Position numbers and translations under genes: made by a program. The notes beneath the pieces are model-generated. The model was not told the origin of the DNA and ran no database searches. It worked only from the letters and a program-made list of their open reading frames with translations. Positions 8,641 to 62,484 of a DNA stretch of 64,000 nucleotides are shown here, in pieces. The DNA is taken from assembly GCA_000432155.1 (NCBI GenBank), contig FR888502.1, forward strand, positions 16,614 to 80,613, read 5' to 3'. Source of the DNA: Eubacterium sp. CAG:274 (GTDB taxonomy: Bacteria; Bacillota; Clostridia; Lachnospirales; CAG-274). Numbering within the stretch: position 1 is the stretch's first letter; each line of letters opens with the position of its first letter.

Positions 8641-9588
8641 ATGGATATTCTTTTGGGATTTATACTGGATACAATAATTGGCGACCCTTATAAACTGCCA
8701 CATCCTATTAGATGGATTGGCAGTTTTATTAGTATACTTGAAAAACTGTGTAGAAAAATTGCAAAAAGCAATACTATGCTTATGATACTGGGAGCAATAC
8801 TTGTTTTTATTGTTGTTTTTGTTTCTGGAGGTATTACATTATTGGTGCTTAAATTAGCCTCTTTCAATAAGTATGCCTATTTAATAGTTTCATCTGTTAT
8901 CTGTTACTATATGCTTGCCGGAAAGTCACTTAAAACAGAAAGTATGAAAGTTTATAAGGCTTTTGAAAACAATGATACAGAGGGTGCTAGAAAGGCTGTT
9001 TCAATGATAGTCGGCAGAGATACACAGTCTTTAACGAAAGAGGGTATTATAAAGGCAGCAGTAGAAACTGTGGCAGAAAATTCATCAGATGGTGTTGTTG
9101 CACCTTTGATTTATATGCTTATTTTTGGACCTGTTGGTGGAGTTGTTTATAAGGCTGTAAATACAATGGACTCTATGATAGGCTATGTAGAGGAAAAGTA
9201 TTTTTATATAGGTAAATTTGCTGCTAAATTAGATGATGTATTAAATTATATACCGGCTAGAATATCTGGAATATTGGTTATTATATCAGCTTTTATATTA
9301 AGATATGACTATAAAAATGCTTTTAGGATTTTTAAAAGAGATAGAAGAAAACACGCAAGTCCTAATTCAGCTCAAACAGAGTCAGCTATGGCAGGAGCTT
9401 TAGGTGTACAGCTTGCTGGCGATGCAACATATTTTGGTGTTGTTCATAAAAAGCCTTACATAGGGGATAAAAAAAGAGAAATAGAAAACGAAGACATAAA
9501 GAGAGCAAATGACATAATGTATACAATGACAATCATTTGTCTTGTAGTAGGTCTTGTAATAAGGAGTGTGGTAATGTGGCTAAAGTAA
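8641..9588 (+). CDS. cbiB: Adenosylcobinamide-phosphate synthase
   Basis: N-terminus [25 protein letters not shown] is characteristic of CbiB/CobD; membrane protein. Confidence 0.9.
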
Positions 9589-9590
9589 TA

Positions 9591-11648
9591 ATGGTACAGG
9601 GAACAATGTCAAATGCCGGTAAGAGCATTATAACTGCTGGGCTTTTGAGAGTTTTTGCACAAGACGGATATAAGGTAGCACCTTTTAAATCTCAAAATAT
9701 GGCATTGAATTCTTTTATTACAAAAGAGGGTTTGGAAATGGGTAGAGCACAGGTTGTACAGGCTGAGGCTGCTGGTGTTGAGCCTGATGTGTTAATGAAT
9801 CCTATACTTTTAAAGCCTAATTCTGATACAGGTTCTCAGGTTATAGTTATGGGTAAGCCTATAGGAAATATGAAGGCTAAAGAGTATTTTAAATACAAAA
9901 AACAGCTTATTCCCACAATAAAAGAGGCATACAATAAATTAGCGGAAAAGTATGACATTATTGTAATAGAGGGTGCAGGTTCTCCGGCTGAAATTAATTT
10001 GAAATCTGACGATATTGTAAATATGGGTATGGCTGAAATGGTTGATGCCCCAGTTATACTTGTAGGAGATATTGATAGAGGTGGCGTTTTTGCACAGCTT
10101 TATGGCACAGTTGAACTATTGCCTTACAATGAGAAAAAGAGAATAAAAGGTATAGTTATAAACAAATTCAGAGGAGATAAAGCTATACTTGAAAATGGCA
10201 TTACTATGCTTGAAAAGAAATGCCATACTCCTGTTGTTGGCGTTGTGCCTTACGGAAATATAGATATTGATGACGAGGACAGTTTGGCTTCAAGACTTGA
10301 AAATAAAACTGTAGGGGCAATAGATATTGCTGTTATAAGATTGCCTAAGTTATCAAACTTTACTGATTTTTCTCCTTTGGAACAGTATGGTATGAGATAT
10401 GTTTCAAATGTAAAGGAATTGGGAAAACCAGACTTAATTGTACTTGGTGGCACTAAAAATACTATTGCCGATATGAAGTGGCTTAATGAAACCGGCTTAA
10501 AATCAGCTATACAGAAATTGGCTGAAAATGGTACAGATATTTTTGGCATTTGTGGTGGCTATCAGCTTATGGGTCAAAAGATAACTGATAGTGAGGGTGT
10601 TGAAAATGGTATTGACACTATAGAAGGTCTTGGTCTATTGCCTGTAGAAACTGATTTCTATATGGAAAAGACTACAAGACAGGTTACAGGTGTAGCCCAT
10701 AATGGGGAAAAAATAACAGGCTATGAAATACATCAAGGTCAAAGTGTAGTAAAGGGCGGACAGGCTTTTTCTGAAATTGAGGGTAGAAAAGAAGGTTGTG
10801 TTTTAAATAACTGTGTTGGCACTTATGTTCATGGTGTCTTTGACGAAACCGGCTTTAGAGAAAGTTATATAAAGAAAATATTTGATAAAAAGGGTATTTC
10901 TTTTGATGTAAAAACTATAGATATAGAGGAATATAAAAACAGTCAATACGATAAATTGGCAGACATTATTCGTGAAAATATGGATATGGACAAAATATAT
11001 GAAATATTAGAGAATAAGGAAACTGACTATACTCCACAATTTGTACTTCCAAAGGATATTGAGGCACGAAGTATGGAAATTATAGAAAGTGAAATGATTA
11101 CAGAAGTGCCAGAAGAGTATAAGCCTATTGTAAAAAGGGCTATACATACTACAGCCGATTTTGACTATGAAACAAGTTTGTATTTTTCACCAAATTGTGT
11201 AGAACAGGCTAGAGAGGCTATAAAAAGAGGAGCGTCTATAATTACTGATACCAATATGGCTAAGGCCGGCATTAATAAGAGAGTTTTAGGTAAATATGGT
11301 GGAGAAGTTTTGTGTTTTATGGCTGATGAGGATATTGCCAAAAGAGCAAAGGAAAATGGCACTACAAGGGCTGTTGCCTCTATGGAAAAGGCGTCAGAAT
11401 TGGAGGGCGAATATATTATAGCTGTTGGTAATGCACCAACTGCCCTTATAAAGCTAAAGGAATTAATAGAAGAAAACAGAATAAAACCTGTACTTATAAT
11501 TGCTGTGCCTGTAGGTTTTGTAAATGTGGTCGAGGCAAAGGAAATTATAAGCAAGTGTAATGTGCCAGTTATAGTAGCAAGAGGAAGAAAAGGTGGCAGT
11601 AATTTGGCTGCGGCAATTTGTAATGGTATATTGTATGGTATAGAGTAA
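9591..11648 (+). CDS. cobQ: Cobyric acid synthase fused to precorrin-8X methylmutase
   Basis: The N-terminal ~490 aa are CobQ: [12 protein letters not shown] start, with a glutamine amidotransferase region [10 protein letters not shown]. The C-terminal ~210 aa are CbiC/CobH ([11 protein letters not shown]...[15 protein letters not shown]). There is no stop between the two parts. Confidence 0.85.
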
Positions 11649-11695: not shown

Positions 11696-11929
11696 AATAG
11701 CAACAGAGTTGCCTGAAGTTATTAAGTAATTTTTAACATTGGGAATCAAGCTGGGTGATTTACCAAGCTTTTTTACTTTTTAGAAGATTACCAAACTTAG
11801 AAATAAAACAGCTAATGATAGGTGACTTATATGATGTTTTTGAGAAAAATATTGAATATATTGATTTAAAGTTGATAGGGTTTCCGGAAAATTATAAAGA
11901 AGTATTAAAAAATAACATAAAATAAAAAC

Positions 11930-11967
11930 AAGGAGTGCAAACACAAGATATGCACTCCTTTTCTTTT
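11930..11967 (+). terminator. Intrinsic terminator
   Basis: AAGGAGTGCA-N11-TGCACTCCTT followed by TTCTTTT. Confidence 0.6.
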
Positions 11968-11977
11968 AATAATAAAT

Positions 11978-12008
11978 AATGAGTCGGAAAGATAAATCCG
12001 ATGGCTTG
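11978..12008 (+). repeat. Copy 1 of the 31-nt palindromic motif AATGAgTCGGAAAGATAAATCCGATGGCTTG
   Basis: Near-identical to 33348-33378 (1 mismatch). It contains the inverted repeat ATCGGA-N8-TCCGAT. Confidence 0.8.
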
Positions 12009-12024
12009 AATGGTCAAAAAATAT

Positions 12025-12451
12025 TTACTTCAAACTACCATCTCCACCCATTAAGGCTGTCAATTCCTCAATATGTTCCAATGGAAAAGGTGGTTCGCAA
12101 AGGGGTTTCATTGCTATACTCATAAGTTTCATTGGGTTATCGTCGGCAGCTACTCTATTTGATGAAAGCTTGCCACATCTTTTGCAACGATGAATAATTG
12201 CCCATTCGCCATTTTTTCTTACCCAAACAGCTACAGGTTCCATAATTCCACCACAGTCAGACTCTCTATCTCCAGGTTCTTCGTCAACATGAAGACTGGA
12301 AAGACAATTAGGACAATGGTTTCTATGGTTATTGCCTGCACTATTTGGAATTACAGGGCGACCACAAACCTTACAAGTAAAAGTATCATTACAAGGATGA
12401 TTTTTATAATATCCCTTTTCATATTTTTTTGCGTTTATTTTCTCTATTCAT
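12025..12451 (-). pseudogene. RNHCP-domain zinc-ribbon protein, reading frame interrupted at an A7 homopolymer
   Basis: The downstream frame encodes ...HPCNDTFTCKVCGRPVIPNSAGNNHRNHCPNCLSSLHVDEE...RCKRCGKL, an RNHCP domain. The ATG with a GGAGG RBS at 12451 is in the +1 frame relative to it. A 6-A run instead of 7 (12424-12430) would give one ~141-aa ORF. Confidence 0.5.
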
Positions 12452-33311: not shown

Positions 33312-33343
33312 AAGGCTGTCGAGGGTTTTCGACAGCCTTTTTG
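33312..33343 (+). terminator. Intrinsic terminator after ftsH
   Basis: AAGGCTGTCG-N8-CGACAGCCTT followed by TTTTTG. Confidence 0.6.
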
Positions 33344-33347
33344 TTTA

Positions 33348-33378
33348 TAATGAATCGGAAAGATAAATCCGATGGCTT
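33348..33378 (+). repeat. Copy 2 of the 31-nt palindromic motif AATGAATCGGAAAGATAAATCCGATGGCTTG
   Basis: 30/31 identical to 11978-12008; lies directly downstream of the ftsH terminator. Confidence 0.8.
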
Positions 33379-33416
33379 GCTTGCAAGCCACATTTTGCAA
33401 AGCAAAATGTTCTGAC

Positions 33417-33442
33417 GGTGAATCGGAAAGATAAATCCGATG
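33417..33442 (+). repeat. Copy 3 of the core motif GGTGAATCGGAAAGATAAATCCGATG
   Basis: The core 24 nt are identical to copies 1 and 2. It sits 20 nt upstream of the Spx/ArsC-family start. Confidence 0.8.
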
Positions 33443-33463
33443 TTCTGAATAGGAGGAATGAGA

Positions 33464-33814
33464 ATGTTATTTTTAGAATATCCAAAATGCTCAACTTGTA
33501 AAAAGGCTAAAAATTGGCTTGAAAGTAATGGTGTTGAATTTGAAGACAGACACATTGTGGAAAACAATCCAACAGCTGATGAATTAAAGGCTTGGTATGA
33601 AAAAAGTGGTTTTCCACTTAAAAAGTTCTTTAACACAAGCGGTTTAAAGTACAAAGAACTTGGTTTAAAGGATAAATTACCTGATATGACAGAAGAAGAA
33701 CAGATTAATCTTCTTGCAACAGACGGTATGCTAGTTAAACGCCCTTTGGTTATAGGCGATGATTTTGTTTTAATAGGTTTTAAAGAAGCTCAATGGGCTG
33801 AAAAATTAAAATAG
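33464..33814 (+). CDS. ArsC/Spx-family thioredoxin-fold protein (CxxC)
   Basis: N-terminal CSTC motif and ArsC/Spx-like length. Start taken at the ATG 7 nt after AGGAGG. Confidence 0.65.
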   Translation: MLFLEYPKCSTCKKAKNWLESNGVEFEDRHIVENNPTADELKAWYEKSGFPLKKFFNTSGLKYKELGLKDKLPDMTEEEQINLLATDGMLVKRPLVIGDDFVLIGFKEAQWAEKLK

Positions 33815-33922: not shown

Positions 33923-36070
33923 GTGTTTTTATTGAAAAAACTATTATGCACAGCTATTTTGGCATTGGGTGTCATTATGCTAATGACAGTAGGAGCTTAT
34001 GCTCAAATGCCAAAGGACAAAATAGCATTACAGGGAGAGGACAGCTTTAAAGCTGAAATGTTTAAGGAATTTAGTGACACTATTGAGGATAATGCCCTCT
34101 ATGTTGCCACTACAGGTAGCGACAGTAATGCAGGTACAATAGATAAGCCTTTTGCTACTGTTCAAAAAGCCTTAGATACAGTAAAGGCAGGTCAGACAAT
34201 ATATGTCAGAGGTGGTACTTATAATGCTCTTAATTCCTTTAAGACATCAGGTAGCGAGGGGAAGTATATTACATTGAGAAACTATCCTAATGAAACACCA
34301 TTTTTGACTTGTACAACTGGTACAAATGGTGCTATTTTGCTTTTAAATGGTTGTAATTACATTAAAATTTATGGACTTGAAATAGGTGGACATTCAGCTG
34401 AGCAAGCCTATGGTATTTTGATTAATGATTGCGAAAACCATATTATTATAAGTAATAATCATATTCACAACTTGCTTACTACAAAGCCAGGAGAAAATGA
34501 AAATGGCGAAGCAAACGGTATTTTGCTTTTTGGCGAGGGCAAGACAGATGAAACTTCTATTAACAATATTTGCATTGAAAATAATAACATACACAATAAT
34601 ACAACAGGTTGGAGTGAAACACTTTCAACTTCTGGTAACTGTAAATATGTAAATGTAATCAACAATACTGTACACGATAATACTAACATTGGTATTGATT
34701 TCTATGGTAATGCAAAATATTGTTCTGTTCCAGCTTATGACCAGCCTAGATATTGCGTTGCCGCTGGTAATACTGTTTACAATTCTATATGCTCATATGC
34801 AGAGTGTGCAGGTCTTTATTTAGACGGTGCAAGAGATACTATATTTGAAAATAATATTGTTTATGGTAGTATGTATGGTATTGAAATTGGTTCAGAAGAA
34901 TTACAGGCAAATTATCCAGTTAAAAATGTTATAGTCAGAAATAACCTTGTTTACAAAAATTCTTGTGGTGGTATAAGAGTTGGTGGTTATGACAAGAAGA
35001 AAACTGGCTATGTTACAGAAACAAAGATATATAATAACACTCTTGTTGACAATGGCGAGGGCGAAGGTGGATATAATGGCGAATTTTGTTTTGTAAAATG
35101 TAATGGCGTAGATGTTAGAAACAATATGGTATATAAATCATCTAATAAGTACCCATTAATTGGTGGAGATTTGCCAGCTGAATATACTTTAAATGTTACA
35201 TTTAACAATAATGTATTCTATGATACAAACAGCTCAGACAGTACTTATTTTGAATACAAGGGTAGTTCGCAAGAGGGTATAGATGCCTTTAATACTTTTG
35301 TAGGTGGTACAAACTATAGTGGCAAACCTAGTTTCAATAGTGATTACAGCCTTGCTAACGGTTCTTACGGTATTGATTTAGGCGATAATGGTGTTTTAAA
35401 TGATATGGGTAGTTTAGTTGATTTGGGCAATAATTACAGAGCCATTGGAACTGTAGATGTAGGTGCTTTTGAGTATCAAGATGGTAGCAAGCCTACAGTT
35501 ACAACAGTTTCTACAACAACAGTATCTACAACTACAACTACCACAGAAGCAACAACAGAAACTACAACATATGATAAGGCAGACTTAAATAAAGACGGAA
35601 ATGTAGATAAAAAAGACTGTGCTATTATGTTAAAGTTGGTACAGGGATTAAAAACTGATATTGTTGCACCGGATTTAAACAAAGACGGTAAAATAGATTT
35701 GTTAGATGCTTTGTGGTATTTGGCTGAAAGTTCTGCTAAGGTTTGGAACTATACTACAGGAGAAAATACAGATAATTTCTATAGTGTAAAAGCCAATAAC
35801 TATAAAAATGCTACAACTATTACATATAACGGATTGACCCTTACAAAGGCTGTTAAAATGGAAACGGGCACAGCAATATCCTTTACAGCTCCAAAAGACG
35901 GTACACTTACACTTGTAGCTAATGGTGGTAGTGGTAAAAAGATAAAAGTAAATAATGTTTCATATGCTATTGTATCAGACGGTGCTTTAGAAGTTCCTGT
36001 AAAAGCCGGAACAGTTACAGTTTCTAAAGATTCCACTGGAACATACTTATATTATATGAGTTTTAAATAA
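33923..36070 (+). CDS. Cellulosomal protein: signal peptide, parallel beta-helix domain, Thr-rich linker, type-I dockerin, and a C-terminal beta-rich domain
   Basis: Beta-helix repeats NNHIHN, NNNIHNN, NNTVHDN. Linker TTVSTTTVSTTTTTTEATTETTT. Dockerin repeats DLNKDGNVDKKD and DLNKDGKIDLLD. The likely true start is a TTG at 33932. Confidence 0.7.
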   Translation: MFLLKKLLCTAILALGVIMLMTVGAYAQMPKDKIALQGEDSFKAEMFKEFSDTIEDNALYVATTGSDSNAGTIDKPFATVQKALDTVKAGQTIYVRGGTYNALNSFKTSGSEGKYITLRNYPNETPFLTCTTGTNGAILLLNGCNYIKIYGLEIGGHSAEQAYGILINDCENHIIISNNHIHNLLTTKPGENENGEANGILLFGEGKTDETSINNICIENNNIHNNTTGWSETLSTSGNCKYVNVINNTVHDNTNIGIDFYGNAKYCSVPAYDQPRYCVAAGNTVYNSICSYAECAGLYLDGARDTIFENNIVYGSMYGIEIGSEELQANYPVKNVIVRNNLVYKNSCGGIRVGGYDKKKTGYVTETKIYNNTLVDNGEGEGGYNGEFCFVKCNGVDVRNNMVYKSSNKYPLIGGDLPAEYTLNVTFNNNVFYDTNSSDSTYFEYKGSSQEGIDAFNTFVGGTNYSGKPSFNSDYSLANGSYGIDLGDNGVLNDMGSLVDLGNNYRAIGTVDVGAFEYQDGSKPTVTTVSTTTVSTTTTTTEATTETTTYDKADLNKDGNVDKKDCAIMLKLVQGLKTDIVAPDLNKDGKIDLLDALWYLAESSAKVWNYTTGENTDNFYSVKANNYKNATTITYNGLTLTKAVKMETGTAISFTAPKDGTLTLVANGGSGKKIKVNNVSYAIVSDGALEVPVKAGTVTVSKDSTGTYLYYMSFK

Positions 36071-36108: not shown

Positions 36109-36134
36109 GTTAGTCTAAGGAAGGGACCATTATA

Positions 36135-37337
<1,203 letters not shown>

Positions 37338-41736: not shown

Positions 41737-41772
41737 AAAGCTATTCCAAAGTGATTTTCGGAATAGCTTTTT
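41737..41772. terminator. Bidirectional terminator between the membrane protein gene and abrB
   Basis: AAAGCTATTCC-N12-GGAATAGCTTT with T-runs on both sides. Confidence 0.5.
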
Positions 41773-41781
41773 GTATAATAA

Positions 41782-42093
41782 TTAGAATATAGTTTCGATT
41801 TTAAATCTATCTTCTTCTTTAGGTCCGTTTTCTTCTATAATCTTGAAACCGGCAAGTTTAGCAAGTTCTCTGATACTTTCAATAGAAACCTTCTTATCCT
41901 TATAATCAATAAGATTTTCTGATTGACCTGTAAAAATATCTCTAGCTTCATATTTTTTAAGAACAATCATATCCCCACTTGTGAAAATTTCTAAAGCGTC
42001 GTTTTCAACAATGTGAAACTTTTCTCTTAACTCACTAGGAAGAACAAAGCGACCGAGCTTATCAACCTTTCTTATTATACCTGTAGAAATCAC
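41782..42093 (-). CDS. abrB: Transition-state regulator AbrB (SpoVT/AbrB swapped-hairpin domain)
   Basis: Start reassigned to the GTG preceded by AAGGAGG (MISTGIIRKVDKLGRFVLPSELRE...ALEIF...IVLKKY), which aligns with the B. subtilis AbrB N-domain. The 116-aa ORF in the track is an upstream extension. Confidence 0.75.
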   Translation of the reverse strand: MISTGIIRKVDKLGRFVLPSELREKFHIVENDALEIFTSGDMIVLKKYEARDIFTGQSENLIDYKDKKVSIESIRELAKLAGFKIIEENGPKEEDRFKIETIF

Positions 42094-57707: not shown

Positions 57708-57745
57708 TAAAAAAAGGACTTTGCGATTTTGCAAAGTCCTTTTTA
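57708..57745. terminator. Bidirectional terminator between gldA and tyrS
   Basis: AAAGGACTTTGC-N6-GCAAAGTCCTTT flanked by A- and T-runs. Confidence 0.5.
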
Positions 57746-57758
57746 TGTGTATACTAAA

Positions 57759-62155: not shown

Positions 62156-62484
62156 TTTAATTCCTCCATAAAAAATAACTGTGGTAAATAAGATTGGGGC
62201 AAATTTACCTAAAAATGTTTTTTACGGGTATAAAAAAATCCCTGCCAAAGCAGGGACGATAATAACCGTGGTTCCACCCAAATTGCACATAAAAGTGCCA
62301 CTTGTCAGCCTTTAACGGAGCAAACCGTGCTTTATTAAAGCCACTCAGAGGTGGTTTTCATAGTTGTCATGCAAGGATAATCACAGCACCATATCCCTCT
62401 CTGAATACATATTGACAAAAATTACTGTCCTCATCACCGTTTTCAATTCAAATTTAATTATATCATCAAAATTTTAAAAGTCAA
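62156..62484 (-). promoter_or_regulatory. T-box leader (thrS)
   Basis: On the minus strand: promoter TTGACT-16-TATAAT; T-box sequence AATTTGGGTGGAACCACGG; terminator GTCCCTGC-TTTG-GCAGGGA plus U7. Confidence 0.8.

Follow-up and report, generated by a model that had tools for sequence, protein, structure and literature searches.

What is the palindrome that recurs on the + strand of a 64,000-nt stretch of DNA from Eubacterium sp. CAG:274 (assembly GCA_000432155.1, contig FR888502.1, positions 16,614 to 80,613; hereafter the window)? The sequence-only reading of the window had proposed an operator for a dimeric regulator, a dispersed element resembling repetitive extragenic palindromes (REP sequences), or an RNA stem-loop. 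The palindrome is the 5' hairpin (H1) of a larger unit of 64-72 nt that comprises three hairpins. These units quite probably represent a short, non-coding, non-autonomous structured repeat of the REP/BOX kind that targets the downstream edge of terminators, for which the name ‘terminator-associated three-hairpin element’ is proposed.

The presence of three copies of the motif on the + strand was borne out, with 0.00 copies expected from 100 shuffles. The 24-nt core, TGAATCGGAAAGATAAATCCGATG, is matched exactly at 33351-33374 and 33419-33442 and with one mismatch (A>G) at 11980-12003, and a 31-nt form is found at 11978-12008 and 33349-33379 (30 of 31 positions identical). The sites had been recognised correctly, although the starts first assigned to two of them, 33348 and 33417, are displaced by 1-2 nt. 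The inverted repeat ATCGGA-N8-TCCGAT is likewise confirmed, its first pair being a G-T wobble in the copy at 11978-12008 (copy 1). Looser searches for the arms or the loop revealed no further copy in the 64 kb.

The order of parts in the unit, as established from aligned flanks, is a 5' box (R)TGAA, the hairpins H1, H2 and H3, a 3' box GTTCTGA and a linker of 2-4 nt. H1 has a stem of 4-6 bp and an invariant loop (ATCGGA-AAGATAAA-TCCGAT); H2 is variable, with 5-8 bp, and typically has the form GGCTTG-loop-CAAGCC; H3 has 8-10 bp and a triloop, as in ACAAATTAAC-AAA-GTTAATTTGT or ACATTTTGC-AAA-GCAAAATGT. At least two unit types, A and B, are mixed within arrays, type B having the H1 sequence CCGA-AAGATAAA-TCGG and other H2 and H3 sequences. 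A mini form, in which H1 is directly followed by TTCTGAAT, recurs at several loci. The units are AT-rich (about 35% GC).

The extent of the family was assessed by scanning the 18-mer TCGGAAAGATAAATCCGA over one genome per bacterial and archaeal species, which returned 75 loci. A single draft genome, ‘uncultured Eubacterium sp. UMGS758’, accounts for 41 of them, often with 2-4 matches 64-73 nt apart; single matches occur in four other Clostridia metagenome-assembled genomes, and the rest are lone matches in unrelated phyla, in a number close to chance expectation. Identity between the window and UMGS758 contigs amounts to 92-98%, which places the two in the same species or in very close relatives. 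Lower bounds for the UMGS758 genome, covering only arrays with an exact 18-mer, are 83 H1 modules and 49 arrays (26 singles, 14 doubles, 7 triples and 2 quadruples). The units within arrays are spaced by 62-75 nt, and all of the multi-unit arrays in the species of the window are arranged head-to-tail. Chance or a purely local duplication at three sites, which the sequence-only reading had put forward should the motif occur nowhere else, would agree with the mere three copies in the 64-kb window; with at least 83 modules in a conspecific genome, and further copies in other species and in phages, that explanation has practically no standing left.

In UMGS758, a terminator-like hairpin with a T-run ends 3-16 nt before the unit in 37 of the 44 arrays that have a complete left flank (84%), as compared with 4 of 400 random positions (1%) in the same DNA. 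The distance from hairpin to unit is 3-11 nt in all but one array, so that the unit begins just past the T-run, and two of the seven non-adjacent cases lie within arrays. Element and nearest upstream gene point in the same direction in 34 cases and in opposite directions in 5, and the downstream gene is co-oriented in 18 and convergent in 20, about half of the arrays being located between convergent genes. The top strand of the element lies on the G-rich strand in a ratio of 43:4, as it does in the window, a preference that is confounded with gene direction. The units occupy the downstream edge of terminators and share the direction of the gene that is terminated. A genome-wide search of the kind suggested as a check, made here with the 18-mer, found the motif behind terminators at dozens of sites in a conspecific draft genome, and the notion of a REP-like dispersed element with a preference for terminators is supported and extended by the number of modules, by the terminator adjacency and by the strain polymorphism described below.

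Two further loci were noted. One of them (L044, positions 1300-2450) comprises glnA, a terminator, an array of a B unit and a mini-unit, a small gene for an ANTAR-like regulator, a second terminator and an A-B-A array, so that successive transcription units are each capped by arrays. At the other (L073), single units at 1370 and 3225, 1.85 kb apart, are preceded by near-identical terminators (AAAACCTCGGAAA..TTTCCGAGGTTTTTT), which suggests that a gene was duplicated and carried its terminator and element along.

The members of the family and the related sites of the window are the following.

11930..11968, + strand: terminator-like hairpin (AAGGAGTGCA...TGCACTCCTT) and T-run, upstream of copy 1 and behind a 56-aa Abi_2 remnant

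11978..12008, + strand: copy 1, a truncated unit with the 5' box (A)ATGA, H1 at 11983-12002 with the loop AAGATAAA, and GGCTTG

33312..33346, + strand: intrinsic terminator of ftsH with a 12-bp stem and T-run (hairpin 33312-33339), the target edge of the array

33349..33415, + strand: full unit with AA-TGAA, H1 at 33354-33373, H2 at 33374-33389 (GGCTTGCTTGCAAGCC) and H3 at 33390-33410 (ACATTTTGCAAAGCAAAATGT)

33416..33418, + strand: CGG linker between units (CAA, CGG, CCAG or ATAG in other arrays)

33419..33450, + strand: terminal mini-unit with TGAA, H1 (33422-33441), TG and TTCTGAAT, without H2 and H3

41766..41785, + strand: empty target site in a T-run, GCTTTTTGTATA/ATAATTAG (the slash marks the insertion point), where one full unit is inserted in UMGS758

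57736..57754, + strand: empty target site GTCCTTTT/TATGTGTATAC in the bidirectional terminator between the genes for an iron-containing alcohol dehydrogenase (Fe-ADH, +) and tyrS (-)

Both sites of the 31-nt form adjoin terminators, as had been claimed. The full unit, which contains the second copy and ends with its 3' box GTTCTGA at 33415, starts 3-5 nt past the T-run that follows the 33312-33339 hairpin of ftsH. A covariance model of the unit matches it at 33347-33419 with 90.8 bits. The mini-unit behind it directly adjoins the Shine-Dalgarno sequence AGGAGG (33451-33456) of a gene starting at 33464, and this gene (33464-33814), described in the sequence-only reading as a member of the Spx/ArsC family, indeed matches the Glutaredoxin and ArsC families of Pfam. 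The additional palindromes noticed in its leader, GGCTTGCTTGCAAGCC and ACATTTTGCAAAGCAAAATGT, are real, but they are H2 and H3 of a single repeat unit and not separate elements.

Copy 1 follows the hairpin at 11930-11960, which has a T-run extending to about 11968 and was missed by the terminator tool on account of its 11-nt loop. It starts some 10-12 nt past this T-run in the window and directly past it at the orthologous UMGS758 site (L035), where the same truncated form is found. The GGCTTG of copy 1 is the 5' half of H2, and H3 and the 3' box are missing; the covariance model match (11976-12038) reaches just 36 bits, with H2 and H3 unpaired. Apart from the full unit and this relic, the model detected no other member in the window. 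The placement of copy 1 ‘after cobQ-cbiC’ was only roughly right: a CobQ-CbiC fusion is encoded at 9537-11648, but the adjacent terminator follows the Abi_2 remnant. This 56-aa open reading frame (ORF; 11755-11925, +) corresponds to the C-terminal part of an Abi_2 (abortive-infection-like) gene, the intact version of which encodes 297 aa in UMGS758 (L035, 5438-6331); about 740 nt of it are missing from the window.

The sites of insertion were compared between strains. One protein of the window has entries in more than 5,500 indexed blocks of the assembly collection, which marks the host as a very common human-gut species. In ten strains with an identical ArsC/glutaredoxin-family protein, the spacer between ftsH and the ArsC-family gene measures 88, 156, 226 or 292-296 nt. 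These lengths correspond to 0, 1, 2 and 3 full units ahead of a mini-unit and a Shine-Dalgarno sequence that do not vary; the mini-unit is present in all ten strains regardless of the number of full units, and the ftsH terminator is identical in ten other strains. The order of unit types varies by strain (a; ab; ba; bba; aaa), and some of the units are chimeric. The convergent terminator between the Fe-ADH gene and tyrS (57744) is followed by 0, 1, 2, 3 or 8 tandem units in strains with identical TyrRS. The insert is the sole difference between the one-unit and the empty strains at this site (CCTTTT/ATTGAATCGG...GTTCTGACCAG/TATGTTT), and this clean junction, the only cleanly resolved insertion, shows no target duplication. 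The site at 41770 is empty in the window and in 10 further strains and carries one unit in UMGS758. At a locus of the L012 type the arrays read B-A, A-B-A-A and B-A-B-A-A, the terminator-distal unit being the same in all of them. The strain look-ups around 41770 and around copy 1 revealed no variation.

On this reading, the units lying between the ftsH and ArsC-family genes and the relic behind the Abi_2 remnant are two insertions and not a dedicated regulatory leader; the annotation of the ArsC-family ‘leader’ is to be corrected to a repeat array. Mixed arrays of unrelated unit types cannot result from local duplication and fit repeated insertion at a target that survives. The terminator would thus remain available as a target after each insertion, and repeated events would build mixed head-to-tail arrays from the terminator-proximal end. 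Recombination or slippage between the direct repeats formed by the 24-31 nt H1 segments may additionally make arrays grow and shrink. Several UMGS758 contigs end inside arrays, and the arrays probably contribute to contig ends in short-read assemblies.

The array of the window is predicted to fold into the three hairpins and the mini hairpin whichever parameters, RNA or DNA, are applied (z = -5.1 and -5.7), and this structure is maintained among the copies. In an alignment of 54 distinct units, 94% of the cells are paired as compared with 77% after shuffling, and double changes occur in 14 of the 22 pairs. These counts are taken over paralogous copies whose events are not independent, but the pattern is evident all the same. 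Pairing collapses to 42-44% when the partners are slid by one column. The 54 units contain 34 distinct H2 and 25 distinct H3 sequences, nearly all of which are still paired. The arms of H1 compensate each other as TCGGA/TCCGA and as CCGA/TCGG, in phages as GCGGA/TCCGC and in a relative as CCGGA/TCCGG. The loop AAGATAAA and the TGAA and GTTCTGA boxes are unchanged across copies, other Clostridia and phages. Compensation in the stems together with the fixed loop and boxes indicates that a folded single strand matters. Mismatches of the G-U and A-C kinds number 20 and 16, respectively, most of them at helix ends, an excess too small to tell the strand or to distinguish RNA from DNA.

This pattern bears directly on the proposal of a palindromic operator, to which a dimeric DNA-binding regulator of the ArsC-family gene and other genes would bind. 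The perfect inverted repeat ATCGGA-N8-TCCGAT and its two copies upstream of one gene are what such an operator would look like, but covarying arms around an invariant spacer, AAGATAAA, are the opposite of what is expected of a double-stranded operator. Moreover, the motif always occurs within the larger unit, the sites lie behind the terminators of unrelated genes with about half of the arrays between convergent ones, and the ArsC-family gene is preceded by 1 to 4 copies depending on the strain. An operator function is thus not supported, and we consider it very improbable. The short frame beginning with MNRKDKSD, which had been noted to open in each copy without a ribosome-binding site, has none, and was rejected as a gene on this account as well as because of indels that are not multiples of three and of the paired stem changes. 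Many copies have GTG or no start codon at its beginning, and the frame is not conserved. No sigma-70-like promoter was found on the + strand inside the array, and a role as an internal promoter was therefore dropped.

A periodic array with a conserved, partly palindromic segment is also reminiscent of a CRISPR-like array or of the repeats of a ToxI-like type III antitoxin. The tandem period of 64-72 nt, the 24-31 nt conserved ‘repeat’ and the apparent growth of the arrays at one end agree with this identity. However, the ‘spacers’ are a small set of recurring H2-H3 modules, the arrays are dispersed over about 50 places in the genome, each behind genes unrelated to the others, and no cas or toxN-like gene was found among the neighbours scanned against Pfam, so that we see very little chance for a system of either type.

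A more serious alternative is a functional structured RNA, for example a stability or processing element or a protein-binding or self-processing RNA, that is transcribed by read-through of the terminator or within operons and whose copy number would be a by-product of its usefulness. The covariation of the stems, the fixation of the 8-nt loop and of the UGAA and GUUCUGA boxes across genera and phages, and the orientation of the elements, which tracks the flanking genes (34:5) and is shared by the phage copies in late operons, would all be accounted for. In addition, several copies end 2-4 nt ahead of a Shine-Dalgarno sequence, and one (L196) is located about 35 nt downstream of a TGnTATAAT-like promoter and is followed by a terminator. 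The RNA stem-loop suggested by the sequence-only reading thus fits the covariation and the co-orientation with genes, but it is disfavoured by the position of the chromosomal copies downstream of the terminator T-run: 84% of the arrays would be outside the mature upstream transcript and have no room for a promoter of their own. The occurrence of 0-8 copies per locus among strains with identical flanking proteins and the frequency of truncated relics also speak against such a function, no Rfam family matches the unit, and G-U mismatches outnumber A-C mismatches by too little to prove that RNA folds strand-specifically. A functional RNA is on balance an unlikely explanation, though one to be taken seriously.

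As for known RNA families, the Rfam 15 scan of the window at gathering thresholds returned only a T-box located elsewhere, and three exemplars scanned by E-value yielded nothing beyond terminator-like or noise matches of 23 bits or less. Hammerhead and hairpin ribozymes, the K-turn and the C/D-box were compared with the consensus by eye and none of them fits, the C/D-box matches (17 and 13 bits) being noise.

The family extends beyond the species of the window. The covariance model confirmed members in the four other Clostridia metagenome-assembled genomes and gave 7 matches among the 100 viral contigs scanned, the finds of the loose pattern being otherwise mostly due to chance; a tighter DNA pattern found 9 viral contigs, which overlap the set of 7 matches. 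A metagenome scan from which the main H1 stem was excluded led mostly back to the species of the window or to near relatives, together with four chance matches in an HNH gene. The phage units are co-oriented with the late genes and occupy the interval between the genes for the portal protein and the prohead protease or lie upstream of terS (small terminase) or of the scaffold gene. In four phage contigs (L170, at 2922-2990, L171, L134 and L226) the unit is located exactly between the portal gene and the gene of a ClpP-like prohead protease. In L170 and, by eye, in L134, the TGA within the TGAA box appears to provide the stop codon of the portal gene, and the portal frame of L171 appears, also by eye, to extend to a TAA in the H1 loop; the Shine-Dalgarno sequence of the protease gene lies 3 nt past the 3' box, as does that of the ArsC-family gene in the window. 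In one of the other Clostridia, represented by a metagenome-assembled genome from rabbit gut (L026, 2899-3044), a second, diverged unit with the loop AAGATTTA is inverted beside the first, and the pair sits among further unrelated hairpins. This species may have a mosaic of the kind known as bacterial interspersed mosaic elements (BIMEs).

If the elements are non-autonomous repeats that insert at the edge of terminators, they would be mobilised by an enzyme supplied in trans that recognises the folded single strand, DNA or, less likely, RNA, and reads the invariant H1 loop and the TGAA and GTTCTGA boxes. The most plausible class of enzyme would be a hairpin-dependent HUH transposase of the IS200/IS605 type or of the REP-associated tyrosine transposase (RAYT) type, because these enzymes insert without duplication, strand-specifically and beside an intact target. 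A classical miniature inverted-repeat transposable element was rejected for lack of terminal inverted repeats and of a consistent target-site duplication. Indeed, TGAA-H1 and H3-GTTCTGA are not inverted with respect to each other, only GAA and UUC being able to pair, and neither the tabulation of flanks nor the two comparisons of empty and filled sites revealed a consistent duplication.

Several observations weigh against insertion of this kind. No transposase or partner gene was detected when IS200 TnpA and Escherichia coli RAYT sequences were compared by tblastn with about 0.45 Mb of DNA from this species, whose genome measures roughly 2.3 Mb; this is a weak negative. The ends of the element are not sharply defined and vary by a few nt; the insert at 57744 begins with AT and ends with CCAG, and the boundaries at 41770 are ambiguous by 3 nt (ATA), which would allow a duplication of 0-3 nt there. 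Terminator adjacency is not evident in the other Clostridia metagenome-assembled genomes or in the phages, where the copies are internal to operons and must be transcribed. A loop and flanking boxes that are fixed across genera and phages are also expected of a functional RNA, and the dependence among paralogous copies, mentioned above, limits what the covariation counts can carry. Searched for an autonomous master copy, the intervals between distant pairs of elements (L044, L023, L027 and L073) contained none, only ordinary genes such as glnA and that of the ANTAR-type regulator.

The properties of the three-hairpin repeat can be compared with those of several known systems. REP sequences and BIMEs are short extragenic hairpin repeats that number tens to hundreds and are enriched behind genes, at their 3' ends, and in convergent intervals (PMC3184786). 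They are found both alone and clustered, and an HUH transposase that recognises hairpins may mobilise them in trans (PMC3184786). The units described here are likewise short, extragenic and hairpin-forming, and are present in many copies, as counted above for UMGS758. REP sequences have a conserved GTAG-type tetranucleotide immediately 5' of the palindrome; here a tetranucleotide ending in AG (ATAG, GTAG, TTAG or CCAG) is often found 5' of the unit, but the invariant TGAA separates it from H1 and many units have AA or AT instead. Unlike REP sequences, which are defined by the sequence of the stem, the units consist of three different hairpins, and it is the loop that is conserved and the stems that vary. 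The arrays are strictly head-to-tail, whereas orientation alternates in BIMEs and REPINs, and the AT-rich composition, the tight placement behind the terminator T-run, the Firmicute host and the phage copies also set the elements apart. A cognate RAYT gene, which in REP systems is flanked by inverted REP sequences, was not found in the approximately 0.45 Mb searched.

The BOX elements of Streptococcus pneumoniae (boxA-boxBn-boxC) are modular and strongly folded, enriched downstream of genes and variable in length between strains (PMC3049150). The repeats of the window resemble them in architecture, as modular interspersed repeats of a Firmicute with a variable number of modules (0-3 and 0-8 units, with A, B and mini forms). 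However, boxA pairs with boxC and the BOX modules measure 45-59 nt, while here terminal inverted repeats are absent, whole units are repeated with the same 5' hairpin, and the sense orientation and adjacency to the terminator edge are strict.

Class C (IIC) group II introns take the DNA motif of intrinsic terminators as their target and are inserted just downstream of it, in sense orientation (PMC4424553). Sense insertion just past terminators (37/44 vs 4/400; 34:5) is shared with these introns as a behaviour only. They are six-domain ribozymes with a length of 0.6 kb or more and in most cases carry a reverse-transcriptase ORF, unlike the tandemly arrayed units of about 70 nt described here, and the Rfam scans of the unit gave no group II match. 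The choice of terminator edges as targets has until now been associated with the class C introns.

The IS200/IS605 elements and the ORF-less palindrome-associated transposable elements (PATEs) have hairpin ends, no terminal inverted repeats and no target duplication, and insert strand-specifically 3' of a short target that is left intact. Such behaviour would fit the junction resolved at 57744 and the mixed arrays with their polar growth. In contrast to IS200/IS605 elements and PATEs, the left and right hairpins of the unit are unrelated in sequence, the ends are not sharp, and the target looks structural (a hairpin and T-run) rather than being a fixed tetra- or pentanucleotide; neither a TnpA gene nor a copy carrying tnpA or tnpB was seen in the sampled DNA. 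The mycobacterial interspersed repetitive units (MIRUs) are tandem intergenic units of 40-100 nt that are oriented with genes, vary in copy number between strains and are used for typing; they are located inside operons and carry small coupled ORFs. Tandem arrangement, gene orientation and strain-variable copy number are common to both, but the units described here are non-coding and hairpin-rich, occur at about 50 or more terminators and are shared with phages.

No published description of this repeat family was found in the searchable literature, and it represents a new repeat family, without an Rfam model, in a very prevalent gut bacterium. The tight, oriented placement at terminator edges, the covariation of stems and the fixed loop and boxes point to a specific recognition machinery, the identification of which would show how a 70-nt element finds terminators. 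More speculatively, and with a rather small chance of being correct, the units could constitute an undescribed structure-directed mobile element, or a self-processing small RNA or DNA, of gut Clostridia and their phages, with an enzyme that reads the AAGAUAAA loop and the UGAA and GUUCUGA boxes and integrates at terminator edges; a polar record of insertions, specific to the strain, would thus build up at each terminator. The hypervariable arrays could also serve as markers for strain typing.

Some other features of the window were noted. The RNHCP-domain gene at 12025-12243 (-) encodes 72 aa that match only the C-terminal half of the profile. Its product has 141-142 aa in UMGS758 and one other strain and 72 aa in several strains, and the short version is probably a pseudogene or a frameshift variant. 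At 36123-36144 there is a breakpoint with respect to UMGS758, which has a larger insertion spanning two contigs, the right end of which consists of a terminator and one repeat unit. A T-box leader (62249-62446, -; 112 bits) is located upstream of a threonyl-tRNA synthetase gene, identified from the strain loci, which is followed by the gene of a metallo-beta-lactamase-fold protein and tyrS. Finally, the gene downstream of the ArsC-family gene (33923-36070, +) encodes a Pel9A-like beta-helix protein with dockerin and CBM77 matches, and from these similarities its product looks like a pectin-degrading enzyme of the cellulosome type.

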